Below, piece by piece: positions 5,552-64,000 of a DNA stretch of 64,000 bases. The notes below the pieces were generated by a model, which saw only the letters and a list, made by a program, of their open reading frames with translations, was not told the DNA's origin and did no database searches. Source of the DNA: Escherichia phage vB_Eco_F31; the sequence record OP870147.1; one strand, 5' to 3'. Position 1 is the first letter of the stretch, and each line of letters starts with the position of its first letter. The position numbers were made by a program, and so were the translations under genes.

Positions 5552-5976
5552 TATTTAAATTTAATTTTCTGAAGTGTATCAATTGCAGCCAAACGCCCTT
5601 GTTCACTTTTAACTGTAATGACCACATCGCCTGATACGATCACCGAACCATCAACAAATTCTATAGAGCCTTTTTTGAAATCGACAGCTGTATCTGGTTC
5701 CTGAACTTCTTCAAAGAATTTAAATTCTGCACCATAAAGCAGAATATCACCTTGCATACTATGAATAGTTCGGCCATAATCGCCTACGGCTTCTACAGCA
5801 ATAACCGAAACACCGTAACCAATCATCTCTTCCACAATAAAATCTTTGGACAATAAAGTAGTATGCAGATTAGTATTAAGACGTTTACCAGTCGTATTAA
5901 GAATTCTCAAGAAATTATCTTCCTGTCCTTTGATAATACGATATTTCTTACCAACTTCAAAACCTTTAAAAGCCAT
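5551..5976 (-). CDS. hypothetical protein (goF position by synteny)
   Basis: 141-aa ORF downstream of gene 39; same size as T4 goF, not otherwise verified. Confidence 0.45.
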   Translation of the reverse strand: MAFKGFEVGKKYRIIKGQEDNFLRILNTTGKRLNTNLHTTLLSKDFIVEEMIGYGVSVIAVEAVGDYGRTIHSMQGDILLYGAEFKFFEEVQEPDTAVDFKKGSIEFVDGSVIVSGDVVITVKSEQGRLAAIDTLQKIKFK

Positions 5977-26135: not shown

Positions 26136-27292
26136 TCCGGGTACCTCAAAGCGTCATCAGAGTTAGTTATATCAATAATAGATATAGAGTTTTCTGCTAA
26201 CCCGTTTTTAGATAATTGACGTTTATAATACCTTTCACAATATGTACACGTTGACCCACAGATTTCATTAGCACAATCAAAATCTGGATGTCTGAACCAC
26301 CTTTTTTCTAAAAAGCCATCTAACAAAGAGGTTTCAATATTTACTGTATGTGAAAACTCAGTTTCATTTTCAAGAGTGAAAATAGTCTCTAAAGGCTTCC
26401 ACAGTTCTAACAAATTACCTTCAAACTTTTCAGAAGCGTATGCTTCAAGAACTTTCAAAATGTAGTCTGTGCTACCTGTACGTCCTGAAACTTTGAATTG
26501 AGTGATACCGATATCATTATAAAGTTTCAAATCTTGAGGACGAACAAAACGAGTTCTCAACCAGTTAAATGGGTCTGTATCACGAGCTTTAATGCAGTGT
26601 TGCATTGGATACCCGTTTAAGGATTTAGCATCATCAGCTGTAACATCAGTACTATGGAAAATATAGCAAGAGTCACGATAGCTACAATGTGTTGTATACC
26701 CTTTACCAGCATTAGAACAGAACTCATTTACAAGAACTTCAAATATTATATTGTTCTTATTGCAAAACTCTGCTGCACGCTTCAGGAAAGAAACTGAACG
26801 GTTCTTATGAATTCCACAGCAGACCTTTTTGATATTGTATTGGTCATGTAAGTATTTGATTTGAGTTACAGCATCGACATGTAGAATTGTTGAAACTTCA
26901 ATCTCAATGTCTTTATTGACTTCACGAACAATTTCCATAACAACAGGGTTAGCGATAGTAATACGCCATACGCCTATTGACCAAAGATACTGAACATAAT
27001 CCTGAATAGCTTTCTTCTTCCACTCGACTAGTTCTCTTTTTGAACCAGGATTTATCGTGTTGAGTGTATAGTTAAAGCAAATACCTAATTCGTTACAACG
27101 TTTAACGTAATCTTCTAACATCTTTTTGTCAACGTCAGGAAGCCTAAAATCAGGTCTGGCTGCTACAAAAGCCATTTCTCTTGTAGAGCCGTATACTTCG
27201 TTTATCAAGCTATTAGGATAAGTTTTATTGAGCTCTACGATTTTATCAAGAAGAGCTAAATCAAAATTCGTTCCGATTTTAAAAGTATTCAT
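26132..27292 (-). CDS. Cys-rich putative Fe-S enzyme (possible U32-peptidase-like TIM-barrel family)
   Basis: 386 aa; central NEFCSNAGKGYTTHCSY and C-terminal CANEICGSTCTYC (CX3CX3CX2C) clusters. Confidence 0.4.
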   Translation of the reverse strand: MNTFKIGTNFDLALLDKIVELNKTYPNSLINEVYGSTREMAFVAARPDFRLPDVDKKMLEDYVKRCNELGICFNYTLNTINPGSKRELVEWKKKAIQDYVQYLWSIGVWRITIANPVVMEIVREVNKDIEIEVSTILHVDAVTQIKYLHDQYNIKKVCCGIHKNRSVSFLKRAAEFCNKNNIIFEVLVNEFCSNAGKGYTTHCSYRDSCYIFHSTDVTADDAKSLNGYPMQHCIKARDTDPFNWLRTRFVRPQDLKLYNDIGITQFKVSGRTGSTDYILKVLEAYASEKFEGNLLELWKPLETIFTLENETEFSHTVNIETSLLDGFLEKRWFRHPDFDCANEICGSTCTYCERYYKRQLSKNGLAENSISIIDITNSDDALRYPE

Positions 27293-61718: not shown

Positions 61719-61934
61719 TTATTGATAAAATGGAGTTAAAGCCCAAGATTCTTTAGATACCATATTGGCGAAATGCCTCATCTCTTCGATTTGGCGACGA
61801 CGCTGGTCAGCATAGTCTTCTTCGCCTTCTTCCTTACAATCTTCAAGGTCTTCTTCAAGATACTTTAAGTATTCACTACAAATTTTGTTGACCTTTTCTT
61901 GAAAGTCCAATAACCCAGTAATAGTAGAAGCCAT
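61719..61934 (-). CDS. small acidic hypothetical protein
   Basis: 71-aa ORF. Confidence 0.4.
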   Translation of the reverse strand: MASTITGLLDFQEKVNKICSEYLKYLEEDLEDCKEEGEEDYADQRRRQIEEMRHFANMVSKESWALTPFYQ

Positions 61935-62200: not shown

Positions 62201-62414
62201 AAGGAATTTCCTCATCGGTGGCAAGGTCATATTCGACCAATTGGATAGGCTCATTAATACCATATCCACGTACAGTGATATCAGTTGTCGGATAGTTTCC
62301 AGTAATATCACCCATTCTAAATGCTTCAGTGAATGATTGCTCGCCTGAGCAACTAAACCAGGCGGCAAAACATTTTAAAACACCTTCAGACCCTTCTATA
62401 ATCAATTTAGCCAT
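62190..62414 (-). CDS. small hypothetical protein
   Basis: 74-aa ORF, TAATG-coupled to the grcA-like ORF. Confidence 0.4.
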   Translation of the reverse strand: MAKLIIEGSEGVLKCFAAWFSCSGEQSFTEAFRMGDITGNYPTTDITVRGYGINEPIQLVEYDLATDEEIPYVD

Positions 62415-62641
62415 TATAGACTCTCAGTAAAGGTACGAGCGATAACGTCGCGCTGCTGTTCCGGAGTCAGAGAGTTAAAGCGAACTGCATAACCGGATAC
62501 ACGGATGGTCAACTGCGGATATTTTTCTGGATGCTTAACTGCATCTTCCAGAGTTTCACGACGCAGAACATTAACGTTCAGGTGTTGACCACCTTCAATT
62601 TTAACTTTAGGGTTGATGTTCAATTTCAATTTCACGGGCAT
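62414..62641 (-). CDS. grcA: GrcA/YfiD-like autonomous glycyl-radical cofactor, C-terminal domain only
   Basis: 75 aa; glycyl-radical motif RVSGYAVRF; residues from [11 protein letters not shown] to the C-terminus match enterobacterial GrcA as I recall it; higher GC and host-like codons. Confidence 0.6.
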
Positions 62642-62777
62642 TCAAACCGTAGAAAATTTCCGGGTCTACAATAGCGTCTTCTTTAAAAGTCTTAGAGACA
62701 ATAATCCGGGCTTGAGTACCGTCTTCAAAATAAATAGTGCCTTTGTGTGTGCCTTCAAGAATTTGATATGCTTTCAT
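62607..62777 (-). CDS. GrcA-like N-terminal fragment (different frame from the C-terminal domain)
   Basis: 56-aa ORF by manual translation; [18 protein letters not shown] resembles GrcA GEARCIVAKAGYAEDEVV; overlaps the C-domain ORF by 35 nt. Confidence 0.4.
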
Positions 62778-62783
62778 ATAACC

Positions 62784-63092
62784 TCAATTAGAAAATAAAT
62801 TTATCCAAGTTTTTTCTTTAATCAAAAATGGGTCGGAATTAAACGCCATTAAACTTTGAGTGATTAATCCCTTAAATGGCCCATCAATAAATTCCATTTT
62901 GAAATGTGGAATACTAGTCATCAACCGTGCATTAGGAGCAGTACAAAGAACCTGCTGCCCTGCGAACGGACCTTTAGTCAAACGGTATCGTTTAGGTTTA
63001 AAATGGTAAATCTCGTAATTTTCTACAAGGGCCCTTTTATTGCATACTAGGCTGTTATAACAATATTCAAAAACTTCAATATTGGTCATCAT
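62784..63092 (-). CDS. hypothetical protein
   Basis: 102-aa ORF. Confidence 0.4.
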   Translation of the reverse strand: MMTNIEVFEYCYNSLVCNKRALVENYEIYHFKPKRYRLTKGPFAGQQVLCTAPNARLMTSIPHFKMEFIDGPFKGLITQSLMAFNSDPFLIKEKTWINLFSN

Positions 63093-63627
63093 TGCATTCC
63101 AATCACAAAAAATTGAGGACGAGCATTACCGCCAATGCAATATTTGCTTTTGCAACAGTGTTGGACTGTTTTAATATGTACATTGTAAATCTTATCCATA
63201 TCAGGAGCTTTAATAGGCTCGTCAATTATATACAGAATACGAGAAAGCGTTAATCCACGGAATTTAGAACCTTCATTGCCAATAAAACTACGAACAGAAT
63301 CAGTAAATAAACGGAATCGAATATCGTCGCTAGAATAACGAGAAAATTCTTTTTCAATGTTGCCAGCAGAAATTTTAGCATAAGCTGAAGTATTAGAAAG
63401 AACAATAACCGTTCCACCATCATACAGCCAATTAGCAGCAAAGTTAGTCACAGCAATTGATTTACCTGATTGTCGGCCACCGTCTAAACGAAGTGTACAG
63501 TACTGCTTGAGTACGTCTTCAAATGGTGGGACATAACCGTTCTTACAAATTTCTTCTACTCTAGCATCAGAATGGTGTGTAAAAGCATTCATCAGGGATA
63601 GATAAGGTCCAGTTAAAAATGTTCTCA
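63089..63627 (-). CDS. small P-loop NTPase
   Basis: about 179 aa from MRTFLTGP; Walker A GGRQSGKS; Walker B ILYIIDEP. Confidence 0.45.
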
Positions 63628-63801
63628 TATTATTTCTCTTAAGGTTTGGGCCATTCCGTGGCACATGTTAGGTCCTTCGACTCGCTATGTAAACCCATTA
63701 CCGCACTTGGGCTCGACCTTATTACAGGTTGGAAAAGGTACATCACTCAGAGGACTCGACGTTCATGAGGAGAGGTTGCGTTTCCCTTTATTAGGCAAGA
63801 A

Positions 63802-64000
63802 TTATACTCTAGGCTTTTGAGCTTGTTTGGTATTGGATTCCCATGCGGCTTTGGTAATTTTGTTAGCGGCATAACCAAAGGCATTAGATAGAACACCTTT
63901 AGAGTTGAATACATCCAATCCAATAAGTACACCGGCTGTGTTAAATTTAGGAGCAAAGTACGCATTAGTTTTAGAAAGAGCTTTTTTCAATTCAGGGTCT
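63802..64000 (-). CDS. C-terminal end of a gene continuing beyond the window
   Basis: ORF runs off the 3' edge of the window; only the last ~62 codons are visible. Confidence 0.35.
   Translation of the reverse strand, partial: DPELKKALSKTNAYFAPKFNTAGVLIGLDVFNSKGVLSNAFGYAANKITKAAWESNTKQAQKPRV

Follow-up and report, generated by a model that had tools for sequence, protein, structure and literature searches.

An apparently host-patched vs.6 gene divided by one extra cytosine in the RB69-like Escherichia phage vB_Eco_F31

In our analysis of a 64,000-nucleotide stretch (hereafter the window) of the genome record of Escherichia phage vB_Eco_F31 (OP870147.1), we found that the T4-family gene vs.6, encoding an autonomous glycyl radical cofactor, is divided over two reading frames by a single extra cytosine. 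The explanation we lean toward, with modest confidence, is that this vs.6 orthologue, whose radical-domain half carries a patch of Escherichia grcA, has been broken in this phage by a private insertion that destroys its function. The first-pass annotation of this DNA had described a grcA-like gene separated into two ORFs by a +1 frameshift. Both ORFs lie where it had placed them, they overlap by 35 nt with the downstream ORF in the +1 frame of the upstream one, and the frame change is indeed of the +1 type and comes down to one additional C. The features of the locus, all on the minus strand, are as follows.

62414-62777, minus strand: vs.6 (T4 Y06I / phage GrcA), 364 nt in place of 363 and spread over two frames, assigned by synteny and 99.0-99.5% identity to relatives
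62782-62785, minus strand: GAGG ribosome-binding site, 4 nt 5' of the vs.6 ATG (tttattttctaattgaggttatATG)
62607-62777, minus strand: upstream ORF of 56 aa from the ORF listing, with its ATG at 62777 and ending in HQP before the stop
62607-62609, minus strand: premature TAA that closes the 56-aa ORF
62610-62612, minus strand: CCC run holding the inserted C, located from alignments in which the relatives read CAA-CCT-AAA and the window CAA-CCC-TAA
62606-62612, minus strand: CCC_UAA_A, a +1 "shifty stop" created by the insertion, read from the sequence
62414-62641, minus strand: downstream ORF of 75 aa, with its ATG at 62641 and its TAA at 62414-62416, matching PF01228 and TIGR04365
62492-62494, minus strand: GGT codon of the radical glycine of RVSGYAVRF (Vs.6 G95), read from the sequence

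The downstream ORF begins with 10 out-of-frame residues and then encodes the whole glycyl-radical domain (Vs.6 residues 56-120), in agreement with its first description: it matched the Pfam family Gly_radical (PF01228) with an E-value of 5.6e-19 and 69.1 bits (cut-off 22.2), and scored 139.9 bits against TIGR04365 ("spare_glycyl"). Its last 60 residues are 100% identical to residues 68-127 of E. coli GrcA, RVSGYAVRF included, in line with the match to enterobacterial GrcA/YfiD given in the annotation. By alignment offset Vs.6 G95 corresponds to GrcA G102, and its counterpart in pyruvate formate-lyase (PFL) is G734, which is both the radical and the cleavage site (PMC8683613). The 56-aa ORF corresponds to the N-terminal half of Vs.6, which is matched in YfiD by a disordered segment, residues 1-60. 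The suggestion that it resembles the GrcA N-terminus proved to be only partly right, as BlastP gave no alignment and the 56-aa ORF on its own had no family match in the Pfam and TIGR04365 profile searches, but a likeness at the profile level appeared once the two halves were joined: the TIGR04365 alignment, limited to positions 57-126 for the 75-aa ORF, then spanned 23-126, with a score of 159.1 instead of 139.9 bits. Neither the 75-aa ORF nor the repaired protein reaches the 170-bit equivalog cut-off of TIGR04365, because the N-terminal halves of the phage and bacterial proteins have diverged too far, and the gene is accordingly placed in the family as the orthologue of T4 vs.6 and not by this model. 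The window contains no single ORF of the ~120-127 residues of a GrcA-type cofactor at this place, and deletion of one C provides one, in which 7 of 120 residues are not those of T4 Vs.6.

The phage belongs to the RB69-like T-even genus Mosigvirus, its best matches over 24 kb being 97-98% identical. Over the 601 nt around vs.6 the identity to phages NBG1, mar005P1, JK36, and Shf125875 is 99.0-99.5%, and the sole gap is 1 nt. At the place of the two ORFs, Shf125875, NBG1, JK36, and T4 each have a single 363-nt CDS (120 aa) flanked by vs.7 and vs.5, annotated in the relatives as vs.6 or as "autonomous glycyl radical cofactor GrcA", and an unbroken 363-nt, 120-aa vs.6 ORF is present in T4 and in ~640 other phage records. 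The gene order vs.8-vs.7-vs.6-vs.5-vs.4 of the window is that of T4 and of RB69-like phages, and the vs.6 stop overlaps the vs.5 start codon (TAATG). Both gene order and sequence identify the locus as the orthologue of T4 vs.6. The T4 regB-denV region, to which the annotation had pointed, was the right place to look, as vs.6 lies there and is annotated as an autonomous glycyl radical cofactor. We take the protein that UniProt names T4 Y06I to be the vs.6 product; that the gene with this annotation in the regB-denV region is vs.6 supports the equation.

Farther upstream in the same gene cluster, a GC-richer "intergenic" stretch (63630-63815, minus strand) lies between an internal-protein-like ORF (63802-63990) and vs.8 (63089-63628). 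It is 80-100% conserved in more than 1000 T4-like phage records, and residues 6-20 and 23-35 of T4 Vs.8 can be read from pieces of it, in neither case in the frame of the vs.8 body; the stretch may be a frame-broken remnant of the longer N-terminus that vs.8 has in T4, or a conserved non-coding element. We rejected a structured RNA upstream of vs.8, as the stretch folds worse than shuffled sequence (z = +2.2) and Rfam at gathering thresholds gave no match anywhere in the window, and likewise a second host patch there, as there was no match to E. coli.

With one C taken out of the CCC run, the gene encodes 120 aa that are identical to the NBG1 protein, and this repaired protein was found on 32 contigs of a public collection. 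The frameshift falls at residue 56, where the N-terminal half gives way to the radical domain. A 76-nt query centered on the insertion retrieved 568 phage records, and all of them lack it; the highest identity was 98.7%, the shortfall consisting of the gap itself. Exact 33-36-mers with the insertion were absent from IMG/VR and from JGI metagenome contigs, while the wild-type version was found in five loci examined, and an exact look-up found neither split product (56 aa or 75 aa) in an index of 153 billion genes. Because the insertion is absent elsewhere, it is to be read as a private mutation or a base-call error and not as a conserved programmed frameshift. Two other origins were considered and rejected: the frameshift is not the junction of a recombination event, as the insertion lies 12-14 nt upstream of the host-type patch described below and all relatives with the same patch lack it, and transcriptional slippage generally needs a run far longer than three C's.

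That the C was added in base-calling or consensus building, and that the phage itself has an intact 363-nt vs.6, is a serious possibility, although we think it somewhat doubtful. A change from CC to CCC in a short homopolymer is a typical class of error, the extra C was unique among the phage records, IMG/VR, and the JGI metagenomes searched, its removal restores a protein already seen on public contigs, and one slip in base-calling or assembly would look identical to a real extra C. To set against this, homopolymer mistakes are not much expected in a run of only 2-3 C's, and in a comparison of the 64-kb window with JK36 (~98% identical) the vs.6 indel was the only one that breaks a CDS, even though the window has many longer A/T runs, in which mistakes ought to appear first. 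The other isolated non-triplet indels in that comparison fell in intergenic homopolymers or in compensated divergent stretches, and an apparent second CDS indel at 27292 was dismissed because that position lies upstream of the real start codon. This pattern argues against a generally noisy assembly, and a single error is compatible with it.

The JK36 comparison gave three further observations. A 1-nt indel at 63706 lies within the conserved stretch upstream of vs.8. A segment of ~200 nt at the vs.3/vs.4 junction (61725-61929) gave no megablast alignment with JK36 although its flanks are 98% identical, and it looks like a small replaced module. At 5966, JK36 has 21 additional nt (TTAAAACCTTTAAAAGACGTA) made up of TTAAAA(C/G)-like repeats, in frame and inside a small hypothetical CDS.

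A second deposited genome bears on whether vs.6 frameshifts are private to isolates. In the Klebsiella phage KPV15 (NC_055715.1, 69679-70119; vs.6 at about 601-959 of the locus) we found a private 1-nt deletion of its own at GAAACTTT-TATGGC, the region measuring 441 nt compared with 442 nt in its relatives. The deletion breaks the ORF, leaving an 80-aa ORF without an ATG where the relatives have an intact gene of 120 aa. KPV15 may therefore be a second case of a private vs.6 frameshift, seen in a deposited sequence, and to that extent it weighs against error in our phage. Isolate-specific vs.6 frameshifts do occur in deposited genomes, as would be expected if aerated culture does not require the gene.

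The annotation had left three explanations side by side: a pseudogene, a sequencing error, and a programmed frameshift. The first two look alike in the window, and the third ranks last, as the arrangement is conserved nowhere and has no stimulator. A used or rescuing +1 ribosomal frameshift, which would yield full-length wild-type Vs.6 at a lowered and possibly tuned level, is nonetheless suggested by the shape of the site, as the insertion makes exactly CCC_UAA_A (GAACATCAACCCTAAAGTT; also GAAATTGAACATCAACCCTAAAGTTAAAATT). With peptidyl-tRNA-Pro in the P site and the stop in the A site, re-pairing from CCC to the CCU available in the +1 frame would be followed by AAA and would restore the exact wild-type ...HQP-KVK..., the peptide across the junction being EIEIEHQPK. 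In addition, CCC is the rarest Pro codon in the long ORFs of the window (13 of 556); CCC_UGA is a documented shifty stop that is especially prone to +1 shifts, and phages Q54 and SPP1 make use of CCC_UAA (PMC3082878). However, the arrangement was recovered from none of the 568 phage records and from neither IMG/VR, the metagenomes, nor the gene index, and the 20 nt upstream (GAAATTGAAATTGAACATCAA) contain no Shine-Dalgarno-like run 5' of CCC_UAA and no other recognized stimulator. Unstimulated CCC_UGA generally shifts at ≤2% (PMC3082878), and UAA, being read by both release factors, would be expected to yield less than that. We therefore regard a used frameshift as very improbable; by analogy with known shifty stops, leaky synthesis of some wild-type Vs.6 is plausible, and slippage here would be incidental leakiness, an accidental partial rescue at best, and not a programmed site.

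We give slightly less credence still to the idea that the split is functional, with the 75-aa ORF translated alone as a short cofactor like the 78-80-residue GrcA2 and GrcA3. The ORF does hold the whole radical domain and aligns with positions 19-78 of the 78 in NF038360 (GrcA3) and 15-78 of the 80 in NF008341 (GrcA2), but it scored 108 bits where the GrcA3 cut-off is 158, and 95 bits where that for GrcA2 is 145. A truncated YfiD(61-127), once activated, still supports catalysis, yet its binding to cleaved PFL was too weak to measure and its activation four-fold lower (PMC8683613). The arrangement was found in no relative, and the ATG of the 75-aa ORF lies 32 nt inside the upstream ORF with no Shine-Dalgarno sequence before it (the preceding sequence is ccggaaattttctacggtttgaATG).

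Returning to the reading we favor, a private loss-of-function insertion, we infer that the phage DNA truly carries the extra C and that it was not introduced in base-calling. The insertion at 62610-62612 would shift the frame where the N-terminal recognition half meets the radical domain, and the loss would be tolerated if vs.6 is dispensable in aerated laboratory culture. The predicted output is the 56-aa N-terminal fragment, with wild-type protein arising in trace amounts at most, through +1 slippage at CCC_UAA. Little of the 75-aa radical-domain fragment would be expected, because its ATG is without a ribosome-binding site.

The first description had also noted a GC-richer, host-like 3' half, and this is borne out by composition, the GC content being 0.478 in the 3' half of the gene and 0.356 in the 5' half, compared with a mean of 0.371 for the window. 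The nucleotide comparison with E. coli grcA that it had proposed resolved this half into two further features.

62424-62598, minus strand: putative host-derived (Escherichia-type) gene-conversion patch, gene positions 179-353, from identity to E. coli grcA
62414-62423, minus strand: phage-type 3' tail of vs.6, stop included (GAGAGTCTATAA), equal to the tails of two distant T4-like phages (L098 and L103)

Within the patch, 3 of 175 positions separate the repaired gene from E. coli grcA (1 of 175 in T4), and a match of 95-99% was found in all 5426 complete E. coli genomes, so that on this point too the annotation was right. Gene positions 1-178, by comparison, differ from E. coli grcA at 97 of 178 (~46% identity), and the last 10 nt of vs.6 differ at 3 of 10 and are identical to those of the two distant phages, leaving the patch bounded by phage-type sequence on both sides. 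The proposal that the 3' part had been replaced by host sequence accordingly holds as to its host origin at the nucleotide level and fails as to its extent, as the replaced part is an internal patch and the gene ends in phage-type sequence.

The identity to the E. coli gene is well above that to other species with the same protein segment: Citrobacter, Trabulsiella, and other Enterobacteriaceae that encode the same 60 residues reach 83-90% nucleotide identity. In other T4-like genera, the same or a similar domain shows 75-84% identity to any bacterium sampled. The similarity to E. coli grcA thus sits at synonymous sites and goes far beyond chance. Since this identity is at synonymous sites, specific to Escherichia, and accompanied by host-type composition, it points to a transfer from host to phage, and the patch would have arisen by homologous recombination or gene conversion of host DNA fragments into a phage-type gene. 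It is not a peculiarity of this genome, because T4, the RB69-like Mosigviruses, and every close relative share the chimera, which makes it an old or recurrent trait of the family. T4 and Mosigvirus vs.6 are 4% apart in their 3' halves and 10% apart in their 5' halves, values that fit either one patch event before the split of T4 and Mosigvirus or several events.

Phages of the KPV15 type offered a comparison in another host genus. The 5' half of their vs.6 is 72% identical to that of the window, so that they share the same phage backbone for this gene. Over positions 179-340, however, they differ at only 2 of 162 positions from the grcA found on long human-gut metagenome contigs (L167-L191), the product of which is exactly GRCA_KLEP7 of the Klebsiella pneumoniae complex, and across the 180-nt 3' segment their identity to E. 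coli is no more than 84%. The gut-contig grcA shares a 41-mer with the KPV15-type patch and is ~99% identical to it over 158-162 nt (phage contig L192). Within the patch we counted 25 differences between the E. coli-type and Klebsiella-type phages and 22 between the corresponding hosts, so that the phage patches diverge in the way that the host genes do. The patch host is E. coli for Tequatrovirus and Mosigvirus and the K. pneumoniae complex for KPV15-type phages, so that the allele of another host is found in a separate phage lineage. Both patches start where the conserved radical domain starts (...GAAGG-GG-CA...), as would be the expected outcome of conversion that depends on homology. The Klebsiella patch indicates an independent and host-specific gene conversion. 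From the two patches together we think it fairly probable that vs.6 of T4-like phages has been repeatedly overwritten by the host's own grcA in a radical-domain patch of ~160-175 nt that is 98-99% identical to the gene of the respective host genus, with phage-type sequence retained in the N-terminal half and the last codons.

The collections searched for grcA also yielded some records of uncertain origin. The IMG/VR "viral" contigs L115 and L156-L165 carry bacterial-type sequences: L115 has a full-length Yersinia-like grcA, 91% identical to that of Y. artesiana over the 3' 180 nt, and several contigs of this set hold the 3' ends of full-length pflB-like genes. These contigs may be bacterial DNA in a viral collection or prophage flanks. 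A full-length grcA also occurs on a plasmid-labelled record, Klebsiella sp. WOUb02 plasmid unnamed4 (275,668 bp; L027), which may be a chromid or a misassigned replicon.

As for what the phage would lose, the two PFL spare parts with biochemical validation are T4 Y06I and E. coli YfiD, which, once activated by PFL-activating enzyme, restore oxygen-cleaved pyruvate formate-lyase (Wagner et al. 2001, as cited in PMC8683613). YfiD residues 61-127 form the radical domain, a duplicate of the PFL C-terminus that includes the radical glycine, and residues 1-60, although disordered, are needed for binding and for efficient activation (PMC8683613). An intact Vs.6, activated by the host PFL-activating enzyme, would dock into oxygen-cleaved host PFL and restore its activity, and in this way host PFL would stay active while the phage infects at low oxygen. 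The enzyme supplies ATP via acetyl-CoA together with formate, the reductant of the class III (anaerobic NrdD/NrdG) ribonucleotide reductase; the close relative JK36 encodes NrdD/NrdG in the aligned region. In the genome analyzed here the function of Vs.6 would be lost or reduced to a trace.

The flagged locus is itself of little weight, as a known accessory gene with a private one-base defect: vs.6 and its function are already known, the frameshift is a singleton, and the annotation to use is "frameshifted vs.6". The patches are a modest point but one that has apparently not been described before, as we found no description of host-specific nucleotide-level patches in vs.6 in the literature searched. 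They would make a compact and testable example of host-to-phage gene conversion in T-even phages. If the recurrent overwriting is true, such conversion would be measurable in phages which break down the DNA of the host and carry modifications on their own, and if it is ongoing and selected, it would keep the phage spare part matched to the PFL and PFL-activase of the host. In that case the private CCC_UAA indel would be a small natural test of +1 rescue slippage. There are practical consequences as well, in that homology-based tools may mistake the patch for contaminating host DNA or a transduced fragment. A 2026 phage-typing study chose grcA as a core marker for Straboviridae (PMC12845203), and primers placed in the most conserved part of grcA would be expected to match E. 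coli or Klebsiella DNA also.

Set beside the systems it resembles, the gene is closest to T4 vs.6, with which it shares its place in the regB-denV region, its vs.7 and vs.5 neighbors, and, once repaired, ~94% of its protein sequence; it resembles E. coli GrcA/YfiD in the identical C-terminal 60 residues with RVSGYAVRF. Unlike both of these, the ORF in the window is interrupted by a one-base insertion and gives no full-length product in a single frame, and unlike bacterial GrcA its N-terminal half is similar at the profile level only. The CCC_UAA_A site is like the shifty stops of prfB (CUU_UGA_C), pheL (CCC_UGA), and Q54 and SPP1 (CCC_UAA) in that a slippery codon, here CCC with CCU in the +1 frame for tRNA-Pro to re-pair, stands directly before the stop, but unlike them it is non-conserved, lacks a 5' stimulator, and is the product of a private insertion. 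The patch, by analogy, would be a phenomenon of a known kind, namely host-phage intragenic recombination in auxiliary metabolic genes, for which the comparison is cyanophage psbA. Mosaics of psbA between cyanophages and Prochlorococcus or Synechococcus are said to have been described by Zeidner in 2005 and Sullivan in 2006. Like these mosaics, vs.6 is a phage copy of a host metabolic gene with a bounded host-type patch, which is host-type in GC, lies inside a phage-type gene, and tracks a particular host. It differs from cyanophage psbA in its pathway, a glycyl-radical repair part of fermentative PFL, in its setting, enterobacterial hosts and phages with modified (hmC-type) DNA, and in that the vs.6 patch always begins at the start of the conserved radical domain.
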